A stretch of DNA of 64,000 nt from Candidatus Omnitrophica bacterium UBA6253. GTDB lineage: Bacteria; Omnitrophota; Gorgyraeia; Gygaellales; Profunditerraquicolaceae. Both the position numbers and the translations under genes were made by a program. Positions 15,532 to 58,244 of this stretch are shown here, in pieces. The notes beneath the pieces were generated by a model that was not told the DNA's origin, made no database searches, and worked only from the letters and a program-made list of their open reading frames with translations. The stretch lies in contig DJVP01000009.1 in NCBI GenBank assembly GCA_002441245.1, positions 12,817-76,816 of the forward strand, read 5' to 3'. Position 1 is the stretch's first letter. The number at the start of each line of letters is the position of its first letter.

Positions 15532-16478
15532 AGTTGCGCTCCTAAGTTATGCAGAAGTAATTTACTGTTAATGTTACTTTCTAAATAAAACAGGCTTTCC
15601 GAGATCGCCGTTAACACACCATCGAGATACTTAAAAGAAAATTCGAGTTTTAGCTTCAGTAAATCATTTTTTCGGTCTAGATGTATCAACTCTCTATCCG
15701 GCAATCCCGCCTTAAGCAAATATACATCCCTGAACCATGAAGCCAGGATATTTAAAAAACTGTGCAATTGTTCTTTGCTCTGGCCTGTCAAATTATGGTC
15801 AAACGCTTTACCAGAAAGAACAAAATAATCAAATATCCTGTTTTTCTCCTCAAATACCCCGGAATCCTTTAGCCTAAGAGCCAACCCCAGCCTTCCTTCA
15901 GAATAAAAGCTAAGAAAATGAGCAAAGAGCCGTTCAACAAAATAATTCTTAATCAAAATATCCTCTAACGCAGCTACTGCCAAAGGAGAAAATCTTATGA
16001 CCCTGCAGCGCGAAAGAATAGTCTTAAATATTCTCTGCGGCTTATGTGTAACTAAAATAATTAAACTGTCCGCAGGCGGCTCTTCCAGGATCTTAAGCAA
16101 GGAGTTTGCCGATTCAGGATTAAGCCTATGCGCGTCATCAATAATAAAAACCTTCATTACCCCTTCGTACGGCCTAAAACTTGCTTGGCGCTGTAAAGAA
16201 CGGATATTTTCAATCTTAATTTGCGAGGTGTCACTTTCAATAATACAAAGGTCAGGATGCTGCAGTTTTTCCATTTTTAAACATGAACTGCAATTGCCGC
16301 ACGGCTTCTGGCTTAAAGCTGTGCAATTTAATTTCTGGGCAATTATTTTAGCGACTGTCTTCTTGCCGATACCCTCCGGACCGCTAAAAATATATCCACC
16401 GGAAAAACATGATTTTTCTATATAAGCATTTATGATATTTAACGGTTTTTCATGCCCCAGGATATCATTAAAGCGCAT
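15519..16478 (-). CDS. holB: DNA polymerase III delta-prime subunit
   Basis: AAA+ clamp-loader fold (FSGPEGIGKKT) with a CGNCSSC zinc module; it follows tmk. Confidence 0.75.
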   Translation of the reverse strand: MRFNDILGHEKPLNIINAYIEKSCFSGGYIFSGPEGIGKKTVAKIIAQKLNCTALSQKPCGNCSSCLKMEKLQHPDLCIIESDTSQIKIENIRSLQRQASFRPYEGVMKVFIIDDAHRLNPESANSLLKILEEPPADSLIILVTHKPQRIFKTILSRCRVIRFSPLAVAALEDILIKNYFVERLFAHFLSFYSEGRLGLALRLKDSGVFEEKNRIFDYFVLSGKAFDHNLTGQSKEQLHSFLNILASWFRDVYLLKAGLPDRELIHLDRKNDLLKLKLEFSFKYLDGVLTAISESLFYLESNINSKLLLHNLGAQLWKA

Positions 16479-17073
16479 CGGTTAACTTTCTGATGTTATT
16501 TTGAGTGGTTAATTTATCGGGTTGCACTTTGACAATCTTAATCCTTTTAGGCTCAAGCCTGGCAAGCTTAAGATACCCCTTCCTTACCATTTCATGATAT
16601 TTAAAAGAGCGCTGTTCAATGCGGTCTTTGCAGCTATGGCGATGCTCAAGCCCCTTCCTTACCGGCAAGTCCAGGAAAAGAGTAAGATCCGGCTTTATTC
16701 CCAAAGTTGCGAATTTACCGATATATTTAATCATGCCTATATCTACCCCTAAACCAAACCCCTGATAGGCAATAGTAGAATCCAGGAAGCGGTCGCAGAT
16801 GACAATCTTGCCGGCGTTTAACGCAGGCTGAATAATATCCCTTACTACCTGGGCGCGGGCAGCCATATAAAGCAGGGTTTCCGCCTCAGGGGATATCTTG
16901 CTTTCAGGATTAAGTAAAATCTCCCTTATCTTCTCGCTTAATTTAACCCCTCCGGGCTCACGCAGATATATTACTCTTAAGCCTTTGGATTTTAGGTAAC
17001 GATAAAGCATCTCTGATTGAGTACTCTTACCGCAGCCCTCAGAACCTTCAAATGAGATAAATTTGCTTTTCAT
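16468..17073 (-). CDS. tmk: Thymidylate kinase
   Basis: FISFEGSEGCGKST P-loop and LREPGG motif. Confidence 0.85.
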   Translation of the reverse strand: MKSKFISFEGSEGCGKSTQSEMLYRYLKSKGLRVIYLREPGGVKLSEKIREILLNPESKISPEAETLLYMAARAQVVRDIIQPALNAGKIVICDRFLDSTIAYQGFGLGVDIGMIKYIGKFATLGIKPDLTLFLDLPVRKGLEHRHSCKDRIEQRSFKYHEMVRKGYLKLARLEPKRIKIVKVQPDKLTTQNNIRKLTDAL

Positions 17074-17150
17074 GCCAATATCTTAAGCGGGTACTATCTT
17101 GGTCTGTTTCTCGCCGCACTCCGCGGCTCGAATTCAACCCAAGCCACCCG
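17074..17150. repeat. Degenerate member of the GC-rich intergenic hairpin repeat family (gccaat...gcggg, tcgccgc-actcc-gcggc).
   Basis: Shares the hairpin-1 module and the GCCAAT loop motif with the elements at 25.1 and 31.6 kb. Confidence 0.35.
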
Positions 17151-18593
17151 CTATAACTTTTTTCTCCAGGTTGTTTTCCCATCTTTAGTATCTTCTAAAA
17201 TTATACCCTGCCCTTCTAAATTCTTCCTGATTTTGTCAGCCAAAACATAATCTTTGGCTTGTTTGGCGTTTGTTCTATCTATAATTCTTGCCTCAATCTC
17301 ATCCTGACCAATTTCTGTTACTTCATGGTTATTTTCAAATACAAAACCAAAAACATTTTTTCCCAAATCCCTAATTACACCCTCTGCTTCATTAATTATC
17401 TGGACATATTCATCACTGCCAGCTCCCGAATCAATAAATTTATTAGTATCGCTAACTAACCCAAAAAGACTAGCCAAGGCATCAGGAGTATTAAAATTAT
17501 CATCCATTGCCTCAATAAAATTATTCTTGTTCTTCTCAATGAAATCTGCGGCCTTTCTTATCCCGCTTATGCAAGATTTCCTTGCCTTCTGGGTATTATG
17601 AAAAAGCATTTCAAACCTCTGCGTCGCCTTATAAGCATCGTCTAATTTTCTCTCTGTAAAATCCATAGGATTAGAATAATGTGTCTGTAGATATAAGATC
17701 TTTAAGGCATCGACCGGATACTTACTTAATACATCGTTTATAGTTATAAAATTACCCAGCGACTTGGACATCTTCTGGCCGTTGATAGTAAGCAGGCCAT
17801 GGTGTATCCAGTAGCGGGCGAATTTCTTGCCTGCGCCCTCGGACTGGGCTATTTCATTTTCATGATGCGGGAAAATAAGGTCAAGGCCGCCGCCGTGAAT
17901 GTCAAATTCATCTCCTAAAATATCCGAGCTCATTACAGAGCACTCAATATGCCAACCCGGCCTCCCCTTTCCCCAGGGGCTATCCCAGGCAGGCTCTCCG
18001 GCTTTGGCGGATTTCCATAAAGCGAAATCAAGCGGGTCTTTCTTTTTCTCGCCAAGGGCAACCCTTGCCCCTGATTCCATTTTTCCTATCGCTTGATTGG
18101 ATAATTTTCCGTAATCCCTGGCTTTCTTAATATCAAAATATACGTCCCCTTCGGAAATATAAGCTGTATCCCTGCCAATCAAATCTTGAATAAATTTAAT
18201 CATCTTGGGGATATAATCGCTCGCCTTGGGCTCAACAATTCCATTCTCCTCTATGCCTAAGTTATTCAATGCATCATGGTAAGCCGAAAGGTACTTATCC
18301 GCCACTTTCTTAAAACTCGTGTTTAAATCTTCACCTGGCAATTCTTCCTTTGCCTTATTGATAATCTTATCATCAACATCAGTAACGTTGCGGACAAATG
18401 TAACCTCATAATCTTTATAGACTAGATAGCGCTTGATAACATCAAATATATACGCACTCCGTGCATGCCCGATATGCGGCTGGTCATAAACCGTAGGCCC
18501 ACAAACGTACATCTTGATCTCTTTCGGCTTTAGGGGAACAAGTTCTTCTTTTTTCCTTGAAAGGGAATTATATATAAAAATAGGCATGGACAA
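17151..18593 (-). CDS. cysS: Cysteinyl-tRNA synthetase
   Basis: HIGH motif (PHIGHARS) and KMSKS motif; 480 aa. Confidence 0.85.
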   Translation of the reverse strand: MSMPIFIYNSLSRKKEELVPLKPKEIKMYVCGPTVYDQPHIGHARSAYIFDVIKRYLVYKDYEVTFVRNVTDVDDKIINKAKEELPGEDLNTSFKKVADKYLSAYHDALNNLGIEENGIVEPKASDYIPKMIKFIQDLIGRDTAYISEGDVYFDIKKARDYGKLSNQAIGKMESGARVALGEKKKDPLDFALWKSAKAGEPAWDSPWGKGRPGWHIECSVMSSDILGDEFDIHGGGLDLIFPHHENEIAQSEGAGKKFARYWIHHGLLTINGQKMSKSLGNFITINDVLSKYPVDALKILYLQTHYSNPMDFTERKLDDAYKATQRFEMLFHNTQKARKSCISGIRKAADFIEKNKNNFIEAMDDNFNTPDALASLFGLVSDTNKFIDSGAGSDEYVQIINEAEGVIRDLGKNVFGFVFENNHEVTEIGQDEIEARIIDRTNAKQAKDYVLADKIRKNLEGQGIILEDTKDGKTTWRKKL

Positions 18594-18660
18594 GCACCTT
18601 ATAGCTTTTGTCTTGCGTAATCCCCGTGAGCGTCAGCGAACTACTAACGGGAAAAACATT

Positions 18661-19341
18661 CTATTTCTTCTCTAAATCCTTAACTCTATCCTGCAGTTCT
18701 TCAATTGTCTGCATGATCGGATCCAGTATACGCGCATGGTCTAAGCTTACATCCATCTTCTTACCGTCCTGCTTGGTAATCCTCCCCGGTACACCCACTA
18801 CCGTGGAATTCGCCGGCACATCTTTAACCACTACCGCATTTGCGCCAATATACGAATTATCTCCAATAGTAATATTGCCTAAAACTTTTGCCCCGGCACC
18901 GATAACAACATTATTACCAATGGTTGGGTGGCGTTTTCCTTTAACAATCCCTGTGCCCCCTAAGGTAGCCCCCTGATAAAGCAGGACATCATCCCCGATA
19001 ATCGTTGTTTCTCCGATAACCACGCCCATACCATGGTCAACAAAGAAACGCTTGCCAATCCTGGCTCCCGGGTGAATCTCGATCCCCGTTACAAGGCGTG
19101 CCAGCTGTGATAATGCCCGGGCAAGAAAAAATAAATGTACCCGATACAATGCATTGGCAATACGATAATAGATCAAGGCGTGCAGCCCCTGATAAAGCAG
19201 GATTATCTCTAAGAAACTTTTTGCCGCGGGGTCTCTTTTCTGCGCCGCCCTGATATCCGAATAGAAAAATATAGAAATAAGCGCAAGCTTAACCGCAACA
19301 AGTATTGCCAAGATTATTATTATATTTATAGCGCAAACCAT
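18661..19341 (-). CDS. cysE: Serine O-acetyltransferase
   Basis: Left-handed beta-helix hexapeptide repeats; N-terminal SAT helical region. Confidence 0.75.
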
Positions 19342-19363
19342 ATTACCTCCCGCATATCCTTGA

Positions 19364-19843
19364 CTAATCCTTAACTAAAGAAGCTAGCGCGTAACAGGAA
19401 ATTGCTTCATTATTGCCTACAGATCCTAAGCCTTCGTTTGTTTTTGCCTTTATGTTCAGGATATCTTCCTGAATCTTCATCAAGGCGCAAAGTTTTTGTT
19501 TTATCTCTTTCTTAAAAGGCGTGAGCGCCGGCTCCTGGGCAATAATTACAGCGTCAAGGTTATTAATCTTATAGCCATTACTATCTACAAATCCTTTAAC
19601 TGTCTTAAGCAGCGAGCCGCTGTCGATCCCCTTATATTTAGGATCTGTATCGGGAAAATACTCTCCGATATCCCCTAACGCCAAAGCTCCCAGCAAGGCA
19701 TCGCAAAGCGCATGGATTAACACATCTCCATCAGAATGCCCCAAGAGGCCTTTATTATAAGGCACTTCCACTCCGCCTAAAAGTAACGGCCTGCCTGCAA
19801 CCAGACGATGAATATCATAACCTATGCCGGTTTTATACTGCAT
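19364..19843 (-). CDS. ispF: 2-C-methyl-D-erythritol 2,4-cyclodiphosphate synthase
   Basis: IGYDIHRL...GHSDGDV...HA..DA motif set. Confidence 0.85.
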
Positions 19844-20519
19844 GGGACTTCCTTTTAATAATTAACCCCGCGACCAATAAATCTTCGCACGTAGTAATCT
19901 TGATATTACTATAATCACCTTCAACTATTTTTACCCTTTTTCCTAATTTCTCGACTAAAGAGGCATCATCGGTAACATCATCCCGGGAGTACTTTTTATA
20001 TGCCTCAAGAAGAAAGTTTTTCTTAAATACTTGTGGAGTCTGCGCCTCCCAGAGCTTACCCCTATCCAGGGTCTCGTTAATTATGCCACCCTGCAGGCAA
20101 GACTTTATTGTCGCCTTTGGCTTTACTGCCAGTATAGCTGAGCCGCTCTTTTTTGCCGCTTGAATAACTTTTGTAATAAACCTGCTATCAACAAACGGCC
20201 TGGCAGAATCATGGATTAATACCCAATCGCTGTCTTTGCTAACTGCCCTAAGCCCATTATAAACTGAATCCTGCCTGCGCCTGCCGCCTAAAACAAAAAC
20301 TTTTATTTTCTTAAAAGAATGCCTCTTTATAGCCTTAATTATTTTACCTTGATTAGCTAAGCTAAGCACCACAATAATCTCGCCTATACCCGGGTGCTTG
20401 TTTAAAGTATCCAGAGAATGAACTACCGCCGGTTTACTGCCTATTCTTACCAAAGGTTTAGGAACTGCGGCATTAAGCCGCCTGCCTTTTCCTGCCGCCA
20501 GGACAATCGCGCTAAGCAT
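19833..20519 (-). CDS. ispD: 2-C-methyl-D-erythritol 4-phosphate cytidylyltransferase
   Basis: IVLAAGKGRRL and HDSARPF motifs; it overlaps ispF (translationally coupled ispDF pair). Confidence 0.85.
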   Translation of the reverse strand: MLSAIVLAAGKGRRLNAAVPKPLVRIGSKPAVVHSLDTLNKHPGIGEIIVVLSLANQGKIIKAIKRHSFKKIKVFVLGGRRRQDSVYNGLRAVSKDSDWVLIHDSARPFVDSRFITKVIQAAKKSGSAILAVKPKATIKSCLQGGIINETLDRGKLWEAQTPQVFKKNFLLEAYKKYSRDDVTDDASLVEKLGKRVKIVEGDYSNIKITTCEDLLVAGLIIKRKSHAV

Positions 20520-21499
20520 TATTTATCAATTTTAGTAAAAATCATCCTACCGGCCTGAGTCTGCAGGACTGAAGTCACCACGGCCTTTACATCCTGGCCG
20601 ATCAACCGACGCGCATCCTCAACTACAACCATTGTCCCGTCATCAAGATACCCCACTGCCTGATTATGCTCCTTACCCTCCTTAATCAGTTTGATATGCA
20701 TCTCCTCGCCGGGAAAGACTACGGGTTTTAAGGCATTGGCTAATTCATTAATATTTAAAACCTTAATTCCCTGGATACTGGCTACGCGGTTTAAATTAAA
20801 ATCTACGGTAAGGATTTTGGCCTCAAGCAGCTTGGCCAACATAACTAATTTTGCGTCAACTTCCGAGGTTTCAGAAAAATCCTGCTCGTGAATAGTTATG
20901 TCCATTCCTGATTCTTTCTGAATAGTATTAAGTATCTCTAACCCACGCCGGCCCCTCTGGCGTTTAATCGGGTCAGTAGAATCGGCAATCTGCTGTAATT
21001 CCCTAAGCACAAACTTGGGGATGATAACTTTCCCCCCTAAGAAACGTGTCTTGCAAATATCAACAATCCGGCCGTCAATAATAACGCTGGTATCAAGAAG
21101 AATTACATCCCCGGACTGGTCCTGCCGGCGCAGACGCACATAAGGAATAATAAGATTAAACTCATCTTTGCCACGCAAAGCCACAACCACCCCAAGATAA
21201 CAAAAAGCTAAAGTCAAGGTCACCCTGATCATGGAAAGAGTAGCAGGATCAGTATAAAAAAGGCTGAATGCATCTCCTGCAAGTTTTGCCATAATCAAAC
21301 CCAAGATCAAACCAAATACAGCACTAGAGAGACCGTTTACTGAAACCTTGCGCAAACCTGCTTCCAGAATAATCAATACGAATGTTATAAGCCCACCGAT
21401 TATCATACCTATAAAGCCAGCCCCATTTGAAGCTGCTGTCTGATATCCGATAACCATGCCGCTCAATATAAACAAAAGCCGTACTAATAATAAATTCAT
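20519..21499 (-). CDS. yacL: YacL-like membrane protein with PIN and TRAM domains
   Basis: N-terminal TM helices, a central PIN domain and a C-terminal TRAM domain. Confidence 0.65.
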
Positions 21500-21607
21500 T
21501 TTTTTGCCTCCTTACCCGTAAGAGTACACGACGCGGAAGCGTCGCATTTGTTTCTCAAATAAAACAATGTGCCGGCCACTTCTTTCGAGCCGGGTGTTAG
21601 CCCATTC
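21500..21607. repeat. GC-rich multi-hairpin intergenic repeat (REP-like family member)
   Basis: Hairpins gacgc-ggaa-gcgtc and tgccggcc...gccgggtg, followed by the ttagc motif that is shared with the 25.1 kb element. Confidence 0.5.
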
Positions 21608-23008
21608 CTATAAATGCGAAGTGCCCTGCTGCTTAACAGATGAGCCCAAGACAATATCTAAGGCTTCTTTTAAAGTAGTAACGGGAATAATCTCCATATC
21701 TGATTTATCAAATTTTAATGTTTTACAGCTATTCTTAGGTAATATGCAATGCTTAAACCCTAGCTTTTCTGCTTCATTAATACGCGTAAGCACCTGAGAA
21801 ATACTCCTGATCTCTCCGGATAGCCCAACCTCGCCTAAAACCACGGCTTGCGGCATAACCACCTGCTCCCGAAAGCTGGAAGTAATCACTGCACAGACCG
21901 CTAAATCCGCTGCCGGATCCTCTATTTTTATTCCACCTGCCACATTAATAAATATATCTTCCGCTTCAAGGGCCAACCCTAAGCGTTTTTCTAAGACTGC
22001 TACCAATAAAGACAGGCGGTTAAAATCAAACCCTTGCGCCCTCCTCCTGGCATAGCCAAAACTACTTCTTGAAACCAAAGATTGTATCTCTACCAAAAGA
22101 GGCCGCGTTCCCTCCAATATAGAGGTAACAATTGACCCGGAAACATTGTTGGGCCTCTCAGAAAGAAAAATCTCTGAAGGATTTTTTACTTCTTTCAATC
22201 CTTCCGGCCCCATTTCAAATACCCCGATTTCATTGGTTGAACCAAACCTGTTCTTTACTGCCCGTAATATCCTGTATATCGCGAAACGATCGCCCTCAAA
22301 ATACAGCACCGTATCAACGATATGCTCTAAGACGCGCGGGCCGGCCAATGTACCTTCTTTTGTAACATGGCCGATAATGAAAATTGATGTGCCGGTAGTC
22401 TTGGCCAACTGCGTAAGGATCCCCGCACATTCCCTTACCTGGCTTACACTTCCAGCTGAAGAGCTGATCGAAGAATCAAAAATAACCTGTATAGAATCAA
22501 TCACTACTACCTGGGGCTTGAGCTTCTTAATGTATTCAACAACTAAAGATAAATCCGTTTGATTTACAATATACAAATTGTCTGACCCGGATTCACCTAA
22601 ACGCTTTGCGCGCAGCTTAGTCTGGACTACAGATTCTTCGCCGCTTACGTAAAGCACCCCTATACCCTGTTTAGTCAGATGATTTGAAACCTGCAGGGAA
22701 ATCGTGGATTTTCCTACCCCCGGATCTCCTCCAATTAGAATCACTGACCCCTTGACGATCCCGCCGCCTAAAACCCGGTCCAACTCACGAATGTTGGTCC
22801 TTAACCTATCCTCATCCCTGGCTACTACATCTTTTAGGAGTACCGGCCCATCTTTATACAGAGAAACCCTGTCCTTGCTTCCGGAAGAAGGGGCGATATA
22901 ATCCTCTTCGCTAAAAGAATTCCAGCTATTGCAATCTGGGCACCTGCCTAGCCATTTTGGAGACTGATAGCCGCAACTGGCGCAACTAAATATCGATTTG
23001 GTTTTCAT
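21608..23008 (-). CDS. radA: DNA repair protein RadA
   Basis: N-terminal C4 zinc finger CASCGYQSPKWLGRCPDC, RecA-like Walker A motif GDPGVGKST, and a Lon-like C-terminal domain. Confidence 0.85.
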   Translation of the reverse strand: MKTKSIFSCASCGYQSPKWLGRCPDCNSWNSFSEEDYIAPSSGSKDRVSLYKDGPVLLKDVVARDEDRLRTNIRELDRVLGGGIVKGSVILIGGDPGVGKSTISLQVSNHLTKQGIGVLYVSGEESVVQTKLRAKRLGESGSDNLYIVNQTDLSLVVEYIKKLKPQVVVIDSIQVIFDSSISSSAGSVSQVRECAGILTQLAKTTGTSIFIIGHVTKEGTLAGPRVLEHIVDTVLYFEGDRFAIYRILRAVKNRFGSTNEIGVFEMGPEGLKEVKNPSEIFLSERPNNVSGSIVTSILEGTRPLLVEIQSLVSRSSFGYARRRAQGFDFNRLSLLVAVLEKRLGLALEAEDIFINVAGGIKIEDPAADLAVCAVITSSFREQVVMPQAVVLGEVGLSGEIRSISQVLTRINEAEKLGFKHCILPKNSCKTLKFDKSDMEIIPVTTLKEALDIVLGSSVKQQGTSHL

Positions 23009-23013
23009 TAATA

Positions 23014-24399
23014 TTAAAGAGCCCCAAAAACCTCTTTCTTGGTAATAAAGGCGCTGGCTGTATCTTTGGTAATTAATCCGCGCCTGAATAAATCCATTAA
23101 AGAACTATCCATTGTATGCATACCAAATTCCGCTCCTGATTCCAAATAACTGTAAATCTGTTCGGTACGCGCCTTTCTAATAAGGTTCCTTATTGCCGGG
23201 GTAAACATCAATACCTCTGTTGCCAAAACCCTTCCTTTTCCATCGGCACGCGGAAGAAGATACTGGCAAACAATACACTCCAAAGACGTAGCTAACTGAA
23301 TGCGTATCTGCATCTGCTGCTCTACGGGGAAGATATCAATCAGCCTATTAATGCATTCAATGCTACTGGTAGTATGCAGAGTAGAAAATACCAATTGGCC
23401 TTCCTCCGCGGCAGTAATCGCCTGAGAAATAGAATCCAAATCCCTCATCTCACCCATTAAGACAATATCGGCATCCTGACGCAAAGTACTTCTAATGGCA
23501 TCAGAAAAAGACAGGGTATCTAAACCAACATCCCTCTGGCAAATTAAGCTGTTTTTACTTGTATATATATATTCGATTGGGTTTTCAATACTGATGATTA
23601 CGCTCTCTCTTCTCCTGTTTATGCTTTCAATAATTGAGGCCAAAGTAGTGGATTTACCGCTATCTACCGGGCCAGAAACAATAACCAAGCCATTCTTCTT
23701 GTTCACGACATTATGCAGGATAGATGGCAGCCCCAATTCATCCAATGATCTTACTTCACTGCCGATAATCTTAGCCACAATCGCAAGATGCCCTTTATCA
23801 AAGAAAACATTCATTCTAAAACGCCGGTTTTCCTGAGGCAAGGTGTAAGCGAAATCCAGCTCAAGATCTTTATAGAGAGCGGATTTTTGTTTTTCGTTTA
23901 TAATGGAAAAAACAATTTTTTCTATGTCCTCTTCCGAGATAGGCACCACATCCATATGCAAAACCTTGCCATCCACCCTGCAAACAGGCATACATCCAAC
24001 TGCTAAATGCACGCTAGTTGCTTCTCTTCTGATTGCGCTGGTCAAAAGTACATCCAGGTCTACTTTCTCAACATATGTGCCTATTTTTTCCTGGCCGTTT
24101 TCGTCTATCTCATCGAAGGAAATTCCGTAAACATATTTATCATCACTGGATTTCTGCGACCGCACTACCTTGCCGATAAATTTTATCGGGGCTTCTAAAA
24201 ACGGAAGGGGCATTTCACCCTGTATAGCTGTGCCTATTTTCATTACATCCTTACTTTCAATTGCAAAACCATTTACACTGATATCCCGGACCTCGGCGCC
24301 AAATACCGCATTAACATTATCGCCTATAAAAGAATACTTGAGCAAATAATCACATTCTTTTCTTCTGGTCGATCTTTTATTCATGAAATTCTTAAACAT
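23014..24399 (-). CDS. pilT: PilZ-domain fused to a PilT/PilU-family type IV pilus retraction ATPase
   Basis: N-terminal RSTRR (RxxxR) and DISVNG (DxSxxG) c-di-GMP-binding PilZ motifs. C-terminal Walker A GPVDSGKST and PilT-type ATPase core. Confidence 0.7.
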   Translation of the reverse strand: MFKNFMNKRSTRRKECDYLLKYSFIGDNVNAVFGAEVRDISVNGFAIESKDVMKIGTAIQGEMPLPFLEAPIKFIGKVVRSQKSSDDKYVYGISFDEIDENGQEKIGTYVEKVDLDVLLTSAIRREATSVHLAVGCMPVCRVDGKVLHMDVVPISEEDIEKIVFSIINEKQKSALYKDLELDFAYTLPQENRRFRMNVFFDKGHLAIVAKIIGSEVRSLDELGLPSILHNVVNKKNGLVIVSGPVDSGKSTTLASIIESINRRRESVIISIENPIEYIYTSKNSLICQRDVGLDTLSFSDAIRSTLRQDADIVLMGEMRDLDSISQAITAAEEGQLVFSTLHTTSSIECINRLIDIFPVEQQMQIRIQLATSLECIVCQYLLPRADGKGRVLATEVLMFTPAIRNLIRKARTEQIYSYLESGAEFGMHTMDSSLMDLFRRGLITKDTASAFITKKEVFGAL

Positions 24400-24421
24400 T
24401 AAAACCTCCTAATTAAAACAG

Positions 24422-25036
24422 CTACTTTCTCTCTTTAGTCTTAATAAACAGTTTCCAGGGGTTTTTACGTATATCGACAACCAGGGCTTCCAGTTGATCA
24501 TAAAGTGTGTCATCATAGATAAGTTTACCTAATGACCCCTCTTTGTTTTTTATCTTAGAAATGCCGTCATCCAAATTGCGCAAAATATTCTCAGCATTCC
24601 TGAATAACTGATGTATGGGTAAAGGATCGATCCCAACCAGGCATTCATTGGCCTTAAGAAAATAAGCATAATCATTACCCGGCATTATCTCCACGTATTT
24701 TTCACCCAATAGCCCCAGGGTATTAACCCAAACAGTAGAATCGACAGGGATTTTAATGTTATTCCTGATCCAAACGCCCAAATTTACATTCGAACGATTT
24801 TCCTCTGGGATAAACTCCAGTTTGATTTTCTTTACTTCCCCCACATCCACTCCGGCGAAACGCACCGGTGCGCCAACCTTTATTCCATTTACAAAATTAA
24901 AGCTCAAATTTATATGATAGCCTGAGCTCCAGGTTTTAAAACCACCGATCGATAGAATAAAAATAATCAGGATCACCAGTCCTATAAAGACAAAAATACC
25001 CACCTTTAACTCTAATTTAGTTTTACCAAATATCAT
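24422..25036 (-). CDS. mlaD: MCE-domain protein MlaD
   Basis: N-terminal TM anchor followed by an MCE domain; lies downstream of mlaE and mlaF. Confidence 0.75.
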   Translation of the reverse strand: MIFGKTKLELKVGIFVFIGLVILIIFILSIGGFKTWSSGYHINLSFNFVNGIKVGAPVRFAGVDVGEVKKIKLEFIPEENRSNVNLGVWIRNNIKIPVDSTVWVNTLGLLGEKYVEIMPGNDYAYFLKANECLVGIDPLPIHQLFRNAENILRNLDDGISKIKNKEGSLGKLIYDDTLYDQLEALVVDIRKNPWKLFIKTKERK

Positions 25037-25185
25037 CTAAACCTCCTTGTACAGAAAGTACACACCGGCCAATCCAATTAGGCCGGGTGTTAGCTTACAA
25101 AAACACACCCGCGCAACTTTCGCCACTAGGCGAACAATGGCCAAATTCCTATCTGGGCCAGGTGTCGCGCTAAGCGCGGCGTGGT
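25037..25185. repeat. GC-rich multi-hairpin intergenic repeat (REP-like; two tandem copies of the module)
   Basis: Contains acacccgcgcaa, hairpins ttcgcc-acta-ggcgaa, tggcc...ggcca, gcgc-taag-cgcg and caccggcc...ggccgggtg, and the ttagc motif. It is homologous to 31620-31719, with compensatory changes. Confidence 0.55.
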
Positions 25186-25950
25186 TTATTTAAAATTATC
25201 AACCGCCTCGGTTATTGGCCCCTTAGCAAGCCCATTGATAAACTGGTGCACAACAGTATTCTTGGACTCCCGGATTTCTTTAGGAGTACCTTCCAAGATT
25301 ATTTTACCTTTATACATCATCGCAATCTTATCGGCAATATGATAGGCGCTTTTCATATCATGAGTAACAACGATTGAAGTAACTTTTAATTTATCATGTA
25401 AAGAACGAATGAGCTCATTAATACTATCTGCAGCTATTGGATCTATGCCTGTAGTCGGTTCATCATAAAGTATGATCTCCGGCCGTATACAGATTGCCCG
25501 TGCCAGGGCCACGCGCTTTTTCATACCCCCGCTTAATTCCGAAGGCATAAGATTTCCGATGCCCCCCAGGCCTACCAATGCCAAAGATTCTTCCACTCTT
25601 TCCGATAATTCTTTTTGGTTGATATGCGTATGCTCGATAAGGCTAAAACCTACATTATCGGCAACGTTCATAGAATCAAAAAGGGCTCCCCCCTGAAACA
25701 CCATGCTGATTTTAGAACGCAAGGCGCTTAATTCCAACTCATTTAAAGCAGCCACTTCTTTTTGATTTACCAAGACCTTGCCCCGGTCAGGTTTTAAAAG
25801 TCCTACAATGTGCTTAAGTAAAACGGATTTCCCGCATCCGCTTCTTCCGATAATTACACAGGTTTGTCCTTTGCTGATACTCAAGTTTAAATCATTCAAT
25901 ACCGGTGAGTTATTGAATTTTTTATTTAGTTTCTGGATCTCAATAATCAT
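25186..25950 (-). CDS. mlaF: Mla ABC transporter ATP-binding protein
   Basis: Walker A motif GRSGCGKS and ABC signature LSGGMKKR. Confidence 0.75.
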   Translation of the reverse strand: MIIEIQKLNKKFNNSPVLNDLNLSISKGQTCVIIGRSGCGKSVLLKHIVGLLKPDRGKVLVNQKEVAALNELELSALRSKISMVFQGGALFDSMNVADNVGFSLIEHTHINQKELSERVEESLALVGLGGIGNLMPSELSGGMKKRVALARAICIRPEIILYDEPTTGIDPIAADSINELIRSLHDKLKVTSIVVTHDMKSAYHIADKIAMMYKGKIILEGTPKEIRESKNTVVHQFINGLAKGPITEAVDNFK

Positions 25951-26736
25951 TTAAGGAAAAATAAAATAGAATAAAGCGGTAAAGAAGCAATCCGCGGCAA
26001 TAATCATAATAAAAGTAAAGACTACCGAACGCGTTGTTGCCCTGCCTACCCCCGCTGCCCCACCTTCAACGTTAAAACCTTCATAGCAACTTATTAGCGC
26101 AATAAGCATCCCAAAAATCCAGGATTTGAATAAACCGGTGAATAAATCTTTATAAAGTAATGAAGAAAAGGTAACATGCATATACATGCTGCTGGTAATG
26201 CCTAATTTTATTGTGCAGATAAAATAGCTCCCCAGGATACCGATAATATTAGCATACAAAGTTAAAATAGGAAGCATAACTCCTAAAGCGACAAAACGCG
26301 GAACCACTAAATATTTTACAGGATTAGTAGCCAAGGTCTCCAAGGCATCAATCTGCTCCGTTACCTGCATGGAGCCTAACTCCGCGGTGTTTGATGCCCC
26401 GACCCTGCCCGCTACTATCAAGGCAGTGATTACGGGTCCGAGTTCACGCACGATAGATAAAGCTACAAGGCTGGCAATATACAACTCTGAACCAATACGC
26501 TGCATGAAATAAGCGGTCTGTAAAGCAAAGATAAAACCGATAAATAAGGCGACTAACGAAACAATCGGGAAGCTGTCATATCCTGCTTTCTTAGCCTGTT
26601 CAATTATGCGGCCATACTTATAGGGCGGCTTAAATGTCAAATACACAGTCTGCCCGGCCAGGTTAGTTAAGCCGCCAAAAAAGTACATAAAAGAAAGTAC
26701 CTTGCGGCCTAAATCCATAAAAAATAAAGTAAACAT
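25951..26736 (-). CDS. mlaE: Mla ABC transporter permease
   Basis: MlaE/YrbE-type permease TM pattern; adjacent to mlaF and mlaD. Confidence 0.75.
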   Translation of the reverse strand: MFTLFFMDLGRKVLSFMYFFGGLTNLAGQTVYLTFKPPYKYGRIIEQAKKAGYDSFPIVSLVALFIGFIFALQTAYFMQRIGSELYIASLVALSIVRELGPVITALIVAGRVGASNTAELGSMQVTEQIDALETLATNPVKYLVVPRFVALGVMLPILTLYANIIGILGSYFICTIKLGITSSMYMHVTFSSLLYKDLFTGLFKSWIFGMLIALISCYEGFNVEGGAAGVGRATTRSVVFTFIMIIAADCFFTALFYFIFP

Positions 26737-29156
26737 TATTCGAAAATAAGCTCTTCGTTCCTACGCGTTACCTTGATTGAAGAACCCTCCTTGTATTTCT
26801 TGGAAATAATCTCCTGAGCCAAAGAATCCTCCAGGTATCTCTGAATAGTCCTTTTCAATGGCCGTGCGCCAAAAACAGGGTCAAATCCTTTTTCGATTAA
26901 GAAATCTTTGGCCTCCCGGCTCACCTCTAAAGATATCTTCTGATCCTTTAACCTTTCGACTACATAACCGATCTCAATATCAATGATCCGCACCAGGTCC
27001 TCTTTAACCAACTGCCGAAAAACTATAATATCATCAATCCGGTTTAAGAACTCAGGTTTAAAAGCATGCTTGACTGCCTCAAGTAGTTTTTCTTTCATAT
27101 CCTGATACGTAACCTCTTCTTTTTGGGTCTTAAAACCAAGGGAGCCGGTCTTGCGGATCAACTCTGCGCCAATGTTAGAGGTCATAATAATAATTGTATT
27201 CTTAAAATCCACCTTACGGCCAAAGCTATCCGTGAGCCGGCCTTCTTCAAAAACCTGCAACAGTAAATTAAAAACATCAGGGTGGGCTTTTTCAATCTCA
27301 TCCAAAAGTATGACCGCATAAGGCCTGCGCCGCACGCGCTCAGTAAGCTGACCGCCCTCTTCATATCCTACATATCCGGGAGGTGCGCCAATGAGCCTTG
27401 AAAGATTAAATTTCTCCATATATTCCGACATATCCAGCTGCAACAAGGCATCTTCGTCGCCAAACATAAACTCCGCTAATGCCCGAGCCAAGAGAGTTTT
27501 TCCTACGCCGGTAGGACCTAAAAATACGAATGAACCTATAGGCCGCCTTGGATCTTTAATCCCGGCGCGCGAACGCCTCACCGCATGCGCAATAGCTTCA
27601 ATAGCTTCATTCTGGCCGACTACACGTTTATGCAATTCTTCCTCGATCTTAAGCAGCTTTTCGCTTTCTTTTTCTTCCAGCCTGAAAGCAGGAATTCCCG
27701 TCCATTGGGCCACAATCTTGGCGATATCCTCAGCTGTAACCTCCGGGCGCATCTTATCTTTTGCCTGCCCCCACTCTTTATTCAATTTTTCCAGTTCCTG
27801 GCGGGCAATACGCTCTTGGTCCCTTAAAGAAGCAGCCTTTTCAAAATCCTGGCTCTTGATGTAAGACTCTTTTTCTTTCCTTAATGACTCAACATTGGCC
27901 TCCAGTTTCTTGATCTCCGGAGGGACAATCAAAACATTCAAGCGGGCATGTGAACCTGCCTCATCGATCAGATCAATGGCCTTGTCCGGCATGAACCTTC
28001 CGGAGATATAACGGTCAGACAATCTTGCCGCAGCTTCTAAGGCCTCATCTCTGAAAGAGACCCGGTGATGCGCTTCATATTTATCGCGCAGGCCTTTTAA
28101 AATCTCAACGGTCTGTTCAACCGTCGGAGGCTCAACCATGATCGTCTGAAACCTGCGTTCTAAAGCAGCGTCCTTTTCGATATATTTACGGTATTCATCC
28201 AGGGTAGTTGCTCCGATACACTGCATCTCCCCGCGGGAAAGCGCCGGTTTCATAATATTTGAAGCGTCAATTGCGCCTTCGGCAGCCCCTGCCCCTACCA
28301 AGGTATGCAATTCGTCAATAAAAATAATGACATCCTGCGAACGCTTGATCTCCTCCATGATCGCCTTGATTCTTTCCTCAAACTGGCCACGGTATTTTGT
28401 CCCGGCGACCATTAACGCTAAATCTAAAACTACGATGCGCTTGCCCCTTAAAACCTCGGGTATATTCCCAAGTATAATCAACTGGGCCAAGCCTTCAACA
28501 ATAGCAGTCTTGCCTACCCCTGCCTCGCCCAAAAGCACAGGATTATTCTTAGTGCGCCGGCTTAAAATCTGAACTACCCGCTCAATTTCATGCACACGGT
28601 CTATTACCGGATCTAATTTATTCTCACGGGCCAAAGCTGTAAGATCCCTGCCAAAGGCATCTAAAGCTGGAGTTTTTGTTTTTGACTGAGCTCCGCCACC
28701 CTGATTCATTCCCGGCAAGGCAGAACCTAAAAGCCCCATCACTTCATTACGCACAGAGTTTAAATCCATGCCTAAATTTAACAACACCTGAGAAGCAATG
28801 CCTTCGCCTTCACGGATAAGCCCGAGCAAAAGATGCTCGGTACCGATATAATTATGCCCCAAGGAACGGGCCTCTTCAGCCGCCAGTTCCAGGGCTTTTT
28901 TGGCTCGCGGGGTAAACGGAATATCTCCGATGATCTGGGTAGTCGGACCGGGTTGTACCAGTTTCTCTATCTCCAGCCTGATATTCTCAAGCGAAACATC
29001 AAGCTTTTGCAATACCGCGGCAGCCACGCCTTCACCCTCCCGTATCAAACCAAGTAGTATATGTTCAGTACCGATATAGTCGTGGTTAAAACGCCTGGCC
29101 TCTTCCTTTGCTAAAATAATTACCTTTCTTGCCCTCTCTGTAAAACGATTAAACAT
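26736..29156 (-). CDS. clpC: ATP-dependent Clp protease ATP-binding subunit ClpC
   Basis: Double Clp_N repeats, two AAA+ modules and a UVR motif. It lies downstream of mcsA and mcsB. Confidence 0.85.
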
Positions 29157-29169
29157 GATTTCTCCTCAA

Positions 29170-30222
29170 TTATAATAGGTTTAGTTTCTTGCGAATAAGC
29201 TGTGCCCTTTTTAAATCCCTTTCATCAGACGAAAGTTTCTTGTTTTCCAGTTTCTGCAAATGAGCTGGCTGGGTAATGATAAAGAGTTCATTGATTGTGC
29301 GGCGGTCAATATCTTTAATCATACCCAAATCGCTGCCCAGCCTAACCATAGACAACAATTCAATTGTCTCCTGGCTGGTAATAATGCGGGCGCTTTTCAA
29401 AATACCCAGAGAACGATTAATCCTATCCTCTAAAACCTCTTTGTTTTTGGAGAGCAGTATCTGGCGCGCCTGGGTCTCCTGCTCGATGATCTGGCGGATA
29501 AGCCCGTTAATGTTTTCAATTATCTCGTCTTCTCCATGCCCTAATGAAACCTGGTTGGAAATTTGAAAGAAGTTCCCGCTGGCCTGCGTACCCTCCCCAT
29601 AAAGGCCGCGGGTAGTAAAGCTTAATTTGGCAATCGCCGCCAATACCCGTTCAATCTGCCTGCTCATTACTAAAGCAGGCAAGTGGAGCATGACCGAACC
29701 GCGCATACCGGTTCCTGTATTGGTAGGGCAGGCAGTAAGGTAACCAAAATCATCTAAATACGCATAATCCAAAAGTCCGGCCAGGGCATCATCCAGGCGG
29801 TTAATAATATCCCTGGCTTCAAAAAGATTAAACCCTGACTGCATCAATTGGATACGCAGGTGATCTTCCTCGTTAATCATCACCGCGATTATCTCTTCAT
29901 CATCAACCAACAATGCCTTATAATCCGTCTTCTGAGAATGCTCAATTGACATAAGATGCCTCTCCACCAAGAACTGCTTGTCAATTGCATCTAAATCCGC
30001 CAGTTTAAAAAGCGTGGAGCTCTTAAGCATATCTATTTTTAAGGCGGCATCACTGATCTTTGCCAAAACCTCCTCAAGCTGTATTTTACTGGCCCAGTGC
30101 GGAAAAGGATATTTGTTAAGATTCCTGGCCAGGCGTATTCTGCTTGAAATAACAATATCAGAGTTTGGACCTGTGCCTTTTAGCCATTCACTGGTATGAT
30201 TTAATAAATCATCAATCTTCAT
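29170..30222 (-). CDS. mcsB: Protein-arginine kinase McsB
   Basis: ATP:guanido phosphotransferase catalytic domain (CPTNTGTGMR). Confidence 0.8.
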   Translation of the reverse strand: MKIDDLLNHTSEWLKGTGPNSDIVISSRIRLARNLNKYPFPHWASKIQLEEVLAKISDAALKIDMLKSSTLFKLADLDAIDKQFLVERHLMSIEHSQKTDYKALLVDDEEIIAVMINEEDHLRIQLMQSGFNLFEARDIINRLDDALAGLLDYAYLDDFGYLTACPTNTGTGMRGSVMLHLPALVMSRQIERVLAAIAKLSFTTRGLYGEGTQASGNFFQISNQVSLGHGEDEIIENINGLIRQIIEQETQARQILLSKNKEVLEDRINRSLGILKSARIITSQETIELLSMVRLGSDLGMIKDIDRRTINELFIITQPAHLQKLENKKLSSDERDLKRAQLIRKKLNLL

Positions 30223-30223
30223 T

Positions 30224-30748
30224 TTAACTTTCTTTTACTCCGCTCCCCTGCTCTGACGAGAGTTTCTTGATTTGATCGCGCAAGCGCGCTGCCTCTTCAA
30301 AATCCTCCCTCTGAATTGCTTTCTGCATCCCTGCTTTCAGACCTTCCAGATCCATCTTTTTCCTTCCGGGCTTTGAGATGACCTTCTCTTTAATAAGCGG
30401 CGATTTACCAACATGCTGATTTGAACCATGGATTCTTTTTAACAAAGGAGCCAGGTATTTACGGAAGGCATTATAGCAACCACCGCAACCCAATCTGCCA
30501 ATCTTCTTGAAATCCGCGTAGGTTAAATTGCAATTAGGGCATTTCACAGCAACATTTTCTTCATCTTTATCCGGTTTCTCAAAATCAGCCATACCCGCCA
30601 AAAGGTCGCTTAAGCCAAACTGCTGCTCCATAGCTGCGCTCTTATTCCTTGCGCAATCCTCGCACAGATGCAGTTCATTCATCTGCTCATCAATAATTTC
30701 AGTAAGATGCACAGTAGCCGGATTTTTTTTACAAATATCACAAAGCAT
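30224..30748 (-). CDS. mcsA: McsA (zinc-finger/UVR-domain activator of McsB)
   Basis: Repeated CxxC zinc-finger pairs and a C-terminal UVR motif (EEAARLRDQIKKL). Confidence 0.7.
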   Translation of the reverse strand: MLCDICKKNPATVHLTEIIDEQMNELHLCEDCARNKSAAMEQQFGLSDLLAGMADFEKPDKDEENVAVKCPNCNLTYADFKKIGRLGCGGCYNAFRKYLAPLLKRIHGSNQHVGKSPLIKEKVISKPGRKKMDLEGLKAGMQKAIQREDFEEAARLRDQIKKLSSEQGSGVKES

Positions 30749-30749
30749 A

Positions 30750-31619
30750 TTAATATTTTATTCCTTCTTTAAGGGTAAGCTGCCTAAACTTCTTCATTAA
30801 CACCAAAGTAAGCTTTCCGGGTTTGCCTGTCCCGATAACCCTGCCGTCCACCTTAACAACAGGAATAATCTCTGCGGCTGTACCGGTCAAGAAACATTCA
30901 TCGGAAATATAAACTTCATGCCTGGTAATCACATGCTCATGCGTTGGGATCTTGCTCTTGCGGGCAATCTCCAAAACTGAATCCCGGGTAATCCCGCGTA
31001 AAGTCCCCATGCACTGCGGAGGAGTATAAAAATGCCCATTCTTAACCACAAAGATATTATCGCCGGTGCACTCGGCCACATAACCTAATGAATCAAGCAT
31101 AATTGCTTCATCAGAGCCGCAATTAGCTGCCTCGATTTTAGCCAGAATATTGTTCAGATAGTTCAAAGACTTGATCTGAGGATTAAGCGCCTCAGGTAAA
31201 TTACGCACCGTAGGCACAGTAACAATACTTAACCCTTCACGATAAAGTTTTTCCGGATATAAGGCAATCTTATCCGCGATGATAATTATTGTAGCCCCCT
31301 TATAGCACTTGCGCACATCAAGCCCCAAGTCTCCTTCTCCGCGCGTAACTATAAGTCGGATATAAGCATTATCCAATTTATTGGCTTTAACCGTCTGCAG
31401 CACCGCCCTGATCAACTGTTCCCTGGTTAAAGGAATTTTTAACATAATGCTTTGCGCAGACTCGAAAAGCCGGTCGATATGCTCTTTTAATTTAAACACA
31501 CGGCGCCCATACGAACGGATCCCCTCAAAAACACCGTCGCCATAAAGCAGGCCGTGGTCGAAAACTGAAATCTTCGCGCTCCCTTTTTCATAGAATTTAC
31601 CGTTGATATAAACCTTCAT
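30750..31619 (-). CDS. ilvE: Branched-chain amino acid aminotransferase (class IV PLP enzyme). The true start is MKVYING at 31619; the longer ORF reads into the intergenic repeat.
   Basis: Class IV aminotransferase motifs; an AAGGGGGG Shine-Dalgarno sequence sits upstream of the ATG at 31619. Confidence 0.75.
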   Translation of the reverse strand: MKVYINGKFYEKGSAKISVFDHGLLYGDGVFEGIRSYGRRVFKLKEHIDRLFESAQSIMLKIPLTREQLIRAVLQTVKANKLDNAYIRLIVTRGEGDLGLDVRKCYKGATIIIIADKIALYPEKLYREGLSIVTVPTVRNLPEALNPQIKSLNYLNNILAKIEAANCGSDEAIMLDSLGYVAECTGDNIFVVKNGHFYTPPQCMGTLRGITRDSVLEIARKSKIPTHEHVITRHEVYISDECFLTGTAAEIIPVVKVDGRVIGTGKPGKLTLVLMKKFRQLTLKEGIKY

Positions 31620-31719
31620 CGTAGCCCCCCTTGTGTACGAACATACACCCGCGCAATCGCCGCAGAAAGCGGCGCACCCGCCAATCATTTATGGCGGGGT
31701 GACTGACTAACGCGGGGCG
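31620..31719. repeat. GC-rich multi-hairpin intergenic repeat (REP-like family member)
   Basis: Contains acacccgcgcaa, cgccgc-agaaa-gcggcg, cccgcc...ggcggg and aacgc-ggg-gcgtt. It is collinear with the 25.1 kb element, and stem pairing is preserved by compensatory substitutions. Confidence 0.55.
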
Positions 31720-36198: not shown

Positions 36199-36582
36199 TT
36201 AAACTGAATCATTAATAACATCGGCCTTAATAATGAATTTGTATATAGGCATAGTTTTACTATCGGTATCTACATATACATACTGGGTTATCTGTCCGGA
36301 ATATCCTTTGGGGTCAAATTTTACCGCCAGGTTAGCGGTTTCTTTGGGCAAGATAACCTTTTTATCTATTTCTGAAACAGTACAACCGCAGGAAGCATGT
36401 GTACCGTTGATATTTAAATCGTCGATAGAATCATTTTTCAATAAAAAGGTGTGCTTTACAATCCCCTCCGAGGCGCGAATCTTGCCGAAATCCCAAGTAT
36501 TAGTATCGGGTTCGGCAAGCTGAGCCAGCCCTACTGATAAAATAAACAAAAAACACACAGTAAATAATAAGACTTTACGCAT
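36199..36582 (-). CDS. DUF1573-domain secreted protein
   Basis: Signal peptide and the characteristic HASCGCTVS motif. Confidence 0.6.
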   Translation of the reverse strand: MRKVLLFTVCFLFILSVGLAQLAEPDTNTWDFGKIRASEGIVKHTFLLKNDSIDDLNINGTHASCGCTVSEIDKKVILPKETANLAVKFDPKGYSGQITQYVYVDTDSKTMPIYKFIIKADVINDSV

Positions 36583-48400: not shown

Positions 48401-48895
48401 TTAGACGGATTTCGTAACTGGAGCTTGAAGAATAATAAAGAAATTAAACGATAAATGGCCGCAGTTCGCTAGGTTATTTTTTTGCTTACTTAGGAGAAAG
48501 TGGAGTATTTCTCGCACATCCTGTTTCATTTGATCCATATCAATATGAAGCTGTTTGCTGATAATCCTTTCGGTATCTGCTTCTGTCGTAGTAATCCTAA
48601 GAAGCTCTTCTTGTTTTCTTATGCGCTCGGCAGTTTCTCTCTTTAACTCCAGCCATCTCCGCCAAGCGAATACGGCTAAACCGATGCTTAAAGTTAGAAG
48701 GGTTGTAACAACTTCATCGACATAGAGTATCTTGTCAGGATACTTCTGTAGAAATTCTACAATTAAACCAAATACATTAAAGAAATATGAAAGGACAAGC
48801 GAAAGAATAACAGCAGCAATAAGTAAAATTAGATCCCTGAATGCCTTAGGGGGATGAAGCTCTATATTATTTCTGGTTTTTTGTACGCCAGTCAT
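48401..48895 (-). CDS. Hypothetical membrane protein (two TM helices plus a coiled coil)
   Basis: ORF with hydrophobic helices and a charged helical C-terminal region; no recognisable family. Confidence 0.35.
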   Translation of the reverse strand: MTGVQKTRNNIELHPPKAFRDLILLIAAVILSLVLSYFFNVFGLIVEFLQKYPDKILYVDEVVTTLLTLSIGLAVFAWRRWLELKRETAERIRKQEELLRITTTEADTERIISKQLHIDMDQMKQDVREILHFLLSKQKNNLANCGHLSFNFFIILQAPVTKSV

Positions 48896-48973
48896 TTTAC
48901 TCCCCCTTGTTGAAGAAATTTCAAGCCAATGGATGGCAAAAGGGACAGGACAATATGCCAGGATTAATTACTG

Positions 48974-49426: not shown

Positions 49427-49445
49427 TTTTTCCTCCTTTTTATAT

Positions 49446-49474: not shown

Positions 49475-49505
49475 CTTATTTATATGCTAGCGCTTCCTAA
49501 ATTAC

Positions 49506-49883: not shown

Positions 49884-49902
49884 ATATTTTACCGCGAATA
49901 AA

Positions 49903-58227: not shown

Positions 58228-58244
58228 TTTAACTCTTCTCCAAA

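Follow-up and report, generated by a model that had tools for sequence, protein, structure and literature searches.

A PilT-type ATPase with an N-terminal PilZ domain in Omnitrophota, a candidate route for c-di-GMP to a pilus retraction motor

Known control of type IV pili by the second messenger cyclic diguanosine monophosphate (c-di-GMP) acts on the extension side, through MshEN domains in MshE and PilB, through FimX–PilZ–PilB, and through transcription and riboswitches. Might the same messenger also act directly on the motor that retracts the pilus? The question is raised by one gene in a 64,000-nucleotide stretch of contig DJVP01000009.1 of Candidatus Omnitrophica bacterium UBA6253 (the window; all coordinates count from its first letter), in which an original prediction, made from the letters alone, saw a PilZ domain fused to a PilT-family retraction ATPase. 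We confirm that the gene encodes a PilT-type ATPase with an N-terminal PilZ domain, and that the protein is not PilB- or MshEN-like. The explanation that we favour, as probable though by no means settled, is that of a PilT-type hexameric retraction ATPase that has acquired a ligand-competent PilZ domain, a c-di-GMP-controlled paralogue serving a pilus machine encoded elsewhere.

Results

A PilZ domain joined to a PilT-type ATPase

The gene and the domains of its product are laid out as follows.

23014..24399, minus strand: PilZ–PilT fusion open reading frame (ORF), 461 residues, uninterrupted, with an ATG start and a TAA stop at 23014-23016
24405..24410, minus strand: Shine–Dalgarno sequence AGGAGG, with a spacing of 5 nt to the ATG at 24399, read from the sequence
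24067..24378, minus strand: PilZ domain, residues 8–111, a six-stranded β-barrel (residues 13–98) and a C-terminal helix, from Pfam PF07238, AlphaFold and fold matches in the PDB
24058..24066, minus strand: three-residue connector, residues 112–114, between helices 100–111 and 115–124 (DSSP on the AlphaFold model)
23755..24057, minus strand: PilT N-terminal (N2D-type) domain, residues ~115–215, from the start of the TIGR01420 alignment at residue 115 and a Foldseek match to PilT4 (6ojx/6ok2)
23038..23754, minus strand: PilT C-terminal ATPase domain, residues ~216–454, from Pfam, NCBIfam, structure alignment and Foldseek

Both halves of the protein match their families far beyond chance, as the E-values of the hidden Markov models (HMMs) attest. 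The claim of an N-terminal PilZ domain holds: PF07238 scores 46.5 bits (E=4.9e-12) over profile positions 2–101 of 102, about twice its gathering cutoff of 22.5. So does the assignment of the remainder to the PilT/PilU type, since the NCBIfam model pilT_fam (TIGR01420), whose cutoff is 319.1 bits, reaches 407.4 over residues 115–454 (profile positions 2–340 of 343), while the PilB, GspE and MshE models reach only about 110 bits against cutoffs of 630–675 (PilB, 110.7 against 675.65; GspE, 114 against 630.25). The broader T2SSE family (PF00437) matches at 121 bits, the ComGA, VirB11 and DotB models fall far under their cutoffs, and no MshEN domain (PF05157) was matched in the protein at E values up to 1. 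An anti-phage defence ATPase was considered and rejected, the sole PADLOC match being mad8 at 21.5 bits, limited to the P-loop region (residues 234–275).

A full-length monomer, modelled with AlphaFold from a 33-sequence family alignment, has a mean predicted local distance difference test score (pLDDT) of 83.8 and a predicted template modelling score (pTM) of 0.66. The block around the connector is modelled at a pLDDT of ~80, leading into the first PilT helix at residues 115–124.

Could the fusion be spurious, two genes run together through a frameshift, a misassembly or a wrongly called start? Some annotations of metagenome-assembled genomes (MAGs) do begin internally and yield a 349-residue PilT without the PilZ domain (P0139), as such an error would have it. 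The reading frame is uninterrupted, however, with a strong ribosome-binding site at the upstream ATG; protein-level conservation extends over the N-terminal region; the model folds the junction with confidence; and about 60 independent clusters, drawn from NCBI, JGI, ENA and Logan assemblies, show the same architecture. We regard an artefact as effectively refuted by these observations, its chances being negligible.

A family of fusions from uncultivated bacteria

The window protein has a copy of 100% identity (P0001) in a Candidatus Omnitrophota MAG, and a scan of a genome collection with the protein as query recovered four close relatives. Further afield, about 57 more clusters (at 90% identity) combine PF07238 with PF00437 in proteins of 447–483 residues, down to 41% identity; across the NCBI, JGI, ENA and Logan assemblies the same architecture spans 447–506 residues. 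A profile built from 28 diverse fusions separates them cleanly from plain PilTs (655–722 bits for fusions, at most 554 for the others), and every fusion that it recovered comes from a MAG or a metagenome. With a profile of the PilZ domain, searched exhaustively over 1.84 billion representatives clustered at 50% identity, at least 11 full-length fusion representatives appear among the top 150 PilZ matches, one of them labelled candidate division Zixibacteria. A word-indexed homologue search with the PilZ-only profile missed every known fusion, its matches being 12 short stand-alone PilZ proteins. The fusions are assigned to Omnitrophota, to Zixibacteria or to MAGs without a taxonomic assignment. 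In a neighbour-joining tree of PilT cores they group together, with bootstrap support for a single clan of only 11–23 of 100; a clade to which the window protein belongs, marked by an aspartate in the Walker A motif, is supported in 86 of 100.

Several database entries bear on how such proteins are labelled. Precomputed Pfam annotations show the architecture, and the names given to the proteins ('PilT/PilU family type 4a pilus ATPase', 'twitching motility protein PilT') omit the PilZ domain; P0139, named 'type IV pilus twitching motility protein PilT', lies in the 90% cluster of P0058, and its internal start hides the domain. A 90%-identical homologue (locus L015) comes from a contig under the name 'uncultured Planctomycetales bacterium', and among identical cluster members one carries the label Elusimicrobiota; both are probably inconsistencies of binning or taxonomic labelling for Omnitrophota MAGs. 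The searches also brought up about 40 clusters (P0033–P0074) of ~686–772 residues with two tandem PilT cores in one polypeptide, labelled Alphaproteobacteria, Myxococcales, Deltaproteobacteria and Lentisphaeria, whose N- and C-terminal halves form separate clades in the neighbour-joining tree.

The PilZ domain and its predicted c-di-GMP site

Two motifs would make up the c-di-GMP site.

24361..24375, minus strand: RxxxR motif, R9-S-T-R-R13, in a disordered N-terminal loop
24268..24285, minus strand: (D/N)xSxxG motif, D39-I-S41-V-N-G44, 25 residues after R13

These motifs had been quoted by the original prediction as RSTRR and DISVNG, together with the Walker A sequence GPVDSGKST, and all three are present as quoted, at residues 9–13, 39–44 and 243–251. 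In the AlphaFold models the domain takes the canonical PilZ topology of six β-strands (residues 13–24, 33–41, 44–49, 58–63, 72–83 and 89–98) and a C-terminal helix (100–111), preceded by a stretch ahead of the RxxxR motif (residues 1–8) that is disordered, with pLDDT below 50. Such disorder is as expected, because the N-terminal loop of apo PilZ domains becomes ordered on ligand binding. When residues 1–118 were modelled separately (pLDDT 79.5), the top 48 fold matches in the PDB were all c-di-GMP-binding PilZ domains; the matches include MotI, BcsA, Alg44, PA4608/MapZ, PlzD, YcgR, MrkH and PlzA, the best being MotI (5vx6, TMq 0.73–0.77).

Across the family, PF07238 is matched by 32 of 33 members and T2SSE by all 33. 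R9, R13 and S41 never vary in two alignments, one of 33 fusion proteins and one of 28, at 32–90% identity; the position of D39 holds either D or N, and that of G44 holds Gly in the window clade and Ser in some other fusion clades. In several distant fusions the ATPase motifs have decayed, yet RxxxR and (D/N)xS are intact in all, a pattern from which we infer that selection acts on ligand binding. Of all the family's properties, the c-di-GMP site is thus the one kept most consistently.

PilZ domains need not bind the messenger, and proteins of the non-binding kind do regulate pilus ATPases (bioRxiv 10.1101/814665; PMC8389850). The domain might then be a degenerate protein-interaction module, as is the Xanthomonas PilZ that bridges FimX and PilB, and the serine that replaces G44 in several fusion clades points in that direction. 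Set against this are the completeness of both motifs at canonical spacing in the window protein, the invariance of R9, R13 and S41 in all fusions compared, best fold matches that are c-di-GMP-bound PilZ domains, and a predicted full six-strand barrel with its helix, whereas in the Xanthomonas type the barrel is incomplete and the RxxxR loop missing (bioRxiv 10.1101/814665). We therefore hold a non-binding module to be improbable and the PilZ domain to be canonical and, by prediction, ligand-competent. Because the fusion is conserved in about 60 clusters with invariant c-di-GMP-contact residues, the proposal of a c-di-GMP input in cis to a retraction-type motor gains support as a prediction.

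The ATPase core is of PilT type, with an altered Walker A motif

Residues 114–447 align end to end with the PilT structures of Geobacter, Aquifex, Pseudomonas and Thermus (E=1e-82 to 1e-91). Identity is highest to Geobacter metallireducens PilT4 (44%), followed by PilU (35%) and then by DotB and PilB (24% each), and the structure searches rank PilT above PilU in the same way (E=8.7e-91 at 44% identity, against 4.7e-65 at 35% for PilU 9n32). Foldseek places the body on PilT4 with a template modelling score of 0.85–0.93, in the two-domain fold of an N2D and a C-terminal domain (CTD). The motifs of a hexameric motor ATPase can be followed along it.

23647..23673, minus strand: Walker A, GPVDSGKST, residues 243–251, with K249; Asp replaces the usual Gly at position 246
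23566..23598, minus strand: Asp box, IISIENPIEYI, residues 268–278; E272 and E276 invariant
23437..23475, minus strand: Walker B with the catalytic Glu, DADIVLMGEMRDL, residues 309–321; E317 invariant
23365..23394, minus strand: His box, LVFSTLHTTS, residues 336–345, with H342, from the family alignments
23173..23196, minus strand: PilT signature helix, AIRNLIRK, residues 402–409; at least 90% conserved, aligning with AIRNLIRE of Geobacter PilT4

K249, E272 and E276, R289, E317 and H342 are all present, and are invariant or nearly so in the window clade; the AIRNLIR helix is of the PilT type, not the PilU type. From these residues, ATP hydrolysis by a hexameric assembly would be predicted.

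The exception to this orthodoxy is the Walker A aspartate. Among 150 PilT-like proteins, GxxDSGKST occurs in every member of the Omnitrophota clade whose fusion gene lies between mla and radA genes, and in that clade exclusively (54 with GPVD, 6 with GLVD, 3 with GPMD and 1 with GPTD); canonical PilTs, both halves of the tandem PilTs and the distant fusions have Gly. Translational GTPases carry Asp at the equivalent P-loop position (GHVDHGKTT), where it is compatible with nucleoside triphosphate hydrolysis; we do not take the substitution as a sign of inactivity, since Asp is standard there. The likeness to an EF-Tu-type P-loop also accounts for a weak GTP_EFTU Pfam match at residues 239–265.

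Catalytic residues have been lost elsewhere in the family. Two distant fusions lack the Walker A Lys (P0169, GPAGAGTTT; P0284, GLPGSGRST) and four lack the His-box His (P0180, P0248, P0270 and P0284), and by their motifs these may be pseudo-ATPases that retain the c-di-GMP site. Such losses bring forward the strongest rival to a motor function, in which the PilT body would be mainly a c-di-GMP-dependent plug or adaptor in the PilC/PilM socket, competing there with PilB or canonical PilT, or recruiting a second retraction ATPase. Besides the distant fusions that keep their PilZ motifs and lose the Walker A Lys or His-box His, this idea can call on the atypical GxxDSGKST of the window clade, found in no other PilT-like protein retrieved; on the separate canonical PilT that Omnitrophota also encode; and on the precedent of Vibrio cholerae, in which a PilT inactivated in its Walker box still supports retraction through PilU (PMC11656802). 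The window protein itself, however, keeps K249, E272/E276, R289, E317 and H342, and its P-loop Asp, with the weak GTP_EFTU match that it brings, is of a kind compatible with hydrolysis in translational GTPases. For the window protein we judge a plug or adaptor possible but unlikely, and prefer a working retraction ATPase.

A housekeeping neighbourhood without pilus genes

The two genes that flank the fusion are both on its strand.

21608..23008, minus strand: radA, starting 5 nt after the fusion stop; synteny in L001–L007
24422..25036, minus strand: mlaD, which closes the series mlaE-mlaF-mlaD and ends 22 nt upstream of the fusion gene; synteny in L001–L007

The fusion gene had been described as standing alone between radA and mlaD with no pilus genes nearby, and every scan agrees. 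Pfam searches of all window ORFs of at least 110 residues found no pilus, type II secretion system (T2SS), pilin, GGDEF, EAL or HD-GYP genes; no prepilin motif occurs in the six frames of the window; and local HMMs found no second PilZ or PilT-like ORF among its 554 stop-to-stop ORFs. Four small adjacent ORFs without Pfam matches, at 48401-50400, were considered as pilins and set aside, as they have no class III signal peptide. Nor were pilus, T2SS, pilin or c-di-GMP turnover genes found within 10 kb of the fusion in about 10 homologous loci. In their surroundings, one distant fusion locus has an MshEN-domain gene 9 kb away, another adjoins bamA-skp-lpxDCAI with a PAS–kinase–PilZ gene nearby, others adjoin nuo genes or an Hsp70 gene, and the Zixibacteria homologue lies beside EpsI with an HD_5/HD (HD-GYP-like) gene two genes away. 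The PAS–kinase–PilZ and HD_5/HD genes we count in favour of the c-di-GMP-controlled motor.

The gene order around the fusion belongs to a larger block (16468-31688, minus strand) that reads mcsA-mcsB-clpC-[mlaEFD-fusion]-radA-PIN(yacL-like)-ispD-ispF-cysE-cysS, and the order mcsA-mcsB-clpC-mlaE-mlaF-mlaD-[fusion]-radA-PIN-ispD-ispF-cysE-cysS is kept in relatives at 79%, 61% and 48% identity. It corresponds to the clpC operon region of Bacillus subtilis minus disA and gltX, the order there being mcsA-mcsB-clpC-radA-disA-yacL-ispD-ispF-cysE-cysS, with a gene for a cyclic-dinucleotide enzyme adjoining radA. The block places a McsAB/ClpC arginine-kinase system of Gram-positive type in a lineage that is diderm and has lptFG and mla besides.

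Because only 5 nt separate them, the fusion gene and radA are probably co-transcribed. A scan for promoters and terminators gave counts at or under shuffle expectation, and no convincing minus-strand terminator between mlaD, the fusion and radA, which accords with co-transcription but is no proof of it. This arrangement raises the possibility that the protein's partners are its neighbours and not a pilus, either as a c-di-GMP-regulated hexameric ATPase that joins RadA in taking up or recombining DNA, or in a role with the Mla lipid transporter. The order from mlaE to cysS is preserved from 100% to 48% protein identity, the short gap to radA contains no terminator, a cyclic-dinucleotide enzyme adjoins radA in the similar B. 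subtilis block, and DNA uptake in naturally competent bacteria is powered by PilT-driven retraction. Taken furthest, the fusion in the window clade would be no pilus motor but a c-di-GMP-gated hexameric ATPase acting with RadA, a diderm counterpart of the Firmicute DisA–RadA checkpoint; this would explain both the fusion–radA pair and the Walker A Asp, conserved down to 48% identity. Adjacency, however, is little informative where the whole block of ~20 kb is a conserved housekeeping superoperon; fusions at 45% identity or less and the Zixibacteria member lie in contexts without radA or mla; the canonical PilT of Omnitrophota likewise sits in an unrelated operon, between leuC and leuD; and the PilT-specific AIRNLIR motif is retained. 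A function tied to the neighbours thus seems very unlikely to us, and the checkpoint version of it is just as doubtful.

In the ~42%-identity clade, a conserved ORF of 153–154 residues with no Pfam match lies directly downstream of the fusion and is followed by a methyltransferase (L008 11412-11873 and L010 3557-4021); it could be a clade-specific partner of the fusion.

Canonical PilT and the partner machine

If the fusion serves a pilus, its distance from pilus genes has to be compared with that of the ordinary motor. A canonical Omnitrophota PilT of 346–352 residues was found in four assemblies in the context rpoA-rplQ...leuC-pilT-leuD-leuB, equally far from pilus genes.

L012 5394-6434 and L021 10001-11050: canonical pilT between leuC (Aconitase) and leuD (Aconitase_C)
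L019 3858-4916 and L020 7100-8158: canonical pilT between an aminotransferase gene and leuB (Iso_dh)

A place downstream of rpoA-rplQ beside leu genes is recurrent, and unusual for a pilus motor gene. In Pseudomonas aeruginosa and other well-studied bacteria, too, pilT loci are unlinked from other pil genes. The fusion's isolation is therefore unremarkable, since canonical Omnitrophota pilT is also embedded in housekeeping operons: the description 'orphaned from pilus genes' is accurate, but does not set the fusion apart.

Both a filament machine and c-di-GMP signalling are to be expected in the lineage, because published surveys of Omnitrophota report the two. For nearly every class of Omnitrophota there are reports of type-4a pili, with gene sets in 135/141 Velamenicoccia, 19/23 Omnitrophia, 11/13 Aquiviventia and 38/40 Gorgyraia (PMC10066038). 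Conserved T2SS- or type IV pilus-like loci with GspD/E/F and genes with class III signal peptides are described as well, as are many small pilZ genes and GGDEF domains (bioRxiv 10.1101/2023.11.21.568195; 10.64898/2026.06.07.730766).

Discussion

How c-di-GMP might reach the motor

In the mechanism that we propose, c-di-GMP would be bound between the flexible R9xxxR13 loop and the D39xS41xxG44 face of the β-barrel. Because only three residues lie between the C-terminal helix of PilZ and the first PilT helix, six PilZ modules would be held rigidly on the N-terminal face or the periphery of the hexamer. Ordering or docking of PilZ on ligand binding might then bias the packing between the N-terminal domain and the CTD that sets the conformation of the PilT hexamer; alternatively, PilZ might mask or expose a surface that docks into the PilC/PilM socket. 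Either way the outcome would be altered retraction activity or altered recruitment. The partner machine would lie elsewhere in the genome and would be a type-4a pilus or else a related system, either a type IV filament or one that is T2SS-like. By analogy with YcgR and MotI we weakly favour a brake, in which high c-di-GMP would slow retraction and so stabilise attachment pili.

Several points weigh against a c-di-GMP-controlled retraction motor. The sign of regulation is not readable from sequence, and the interdomain geometry is that of a monomer model with a pTM of 0.66. The near-universal Walker A Gly is replaced by Asp at position 246 throughout the window clade, and the loss of catalytic residues in some relatives hints that the PilT body can act non-catalytically. 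With no linked pilus or c-di-GMP genes in the window or the ~10 homologous loci, guilt by association lends a pilus role no support.

Should retraction be under such control, it could be part of an attach-or-release decision: Omnitrophota are ultra-small and probably predatory or parasitic, and their nearly universal type-4a pili are believed to serve in attachment to hosts (PMC10066038). With sensor and motor in a single polypeptide, the fusion would also offer a one-protein system for the coupling of ligand binding to the conformational cycle of the PilT hexamer.

Other features of the window

Four further regions of the window, all on the minus strand, deserve mention in their own right.

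982-2319, minus strand: a single 445-residue ORF combining an N-terminal Maf domain (residues 2–187) with a C-terminal Peptidase_M48 domain (residues 245–425)
36582-37760, minus strand: a 392-residue ORF beside a DUF1573 gene, with no Pfam match and no prepilin signal
48401-50400, minus strand: the four adjacent ORFs noted above, of 125–165 residues; two are predicted by eye to be membrane proteins
57046-63965, minus strand: three radical SAM genes (two B12-binding, one of the SPASM type), a PMT_2 glycosyltransferase and a U32 peptidase-like gene; the cluster may be a modification or biosynthetic locus

Comparison with known systems

Full-text literature searches found no paper describing a PilZ–PilT or PilZ–T2SSE fusion, nor any account of a second messenger acting directly on a retraction ATPase. 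A survey of PilZ domains lists many architectures and no fusion to PilT or T2SSE (bioRxiv 10.1101/814665), three Omnitrophota genomics papers contain no description of a PilZ–PilT fusion, and a 2024 review of the regulation of pilus ATPases treats c-di-GMP on the extension side only (PMC11656802). A Geotalea paper was weighed as a prior description and discarded, as it lists separate PilZ and PilT genes only.

The fusion has in common with canonical PilT (G. metallireducens PilT4, 6OJX/6OK2; P. aeruginosa PilT, 3JVV) the N2D and CTD fold, Walker A and B, the Asp and His boxes and the AIRNLIR helix, and differs in an extra N-terminal PilZ portion of 113 residues and in a Walker A motif that reads GPVDSGKST in place of GPTGSGKST. 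In logic it resembles MshE and PilB with MshEN, which likewise carry a c-di-GMP sensor in cis upstream of N2D (PMC5013675; PMC4624772; PMC11656802); its sensor, however, is a PilZ β-barrel and not the helical MshEN domain, and its motor is a retraction-type PilT and not an extension-type PilB or GspE.

Canonical PilZ domains also control a motility motor in YcgR and MotI (DgrA), by braking the flagellar motor or declutching it. Both proteins work in trans, their target being the rotor or stator of the flagellum, and bind c-di-GMP at the linker between PilZN and PilZ, whereas the fusion has a single PilZ domain, covalently on a pilus ATPase and with its RxxxR motif at the very N-terminus. A PilZ fold links a pilus ATPase to c-di-GMP signalling in the PilZ–FimX–PilB systems of Xanthomonas and Pseudomonas too (PMC8389850; bioRxiv 10.1101/814665), but there it is a separate protein with an incomplete barrel and no binding motifs, its target is the extension ATPase PilB, and FimX senses c-di-GMP; in the fusion the PilZ domain is canonical, covalently joined, and on PilT. 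The joining of PilZ to an ATPase machine has a precedent in the PilZ–DnaK fusions reported from Myxococcus xanthus (PMC10313047), in which the class of ATPase (Hsp70) and the biology are different. The parts, and the general logic of a sensor fused to a motor, are already familiar; what appears to be new is their combination, a known retraction motor and a known c-di-GMP sensor joined in one protein.

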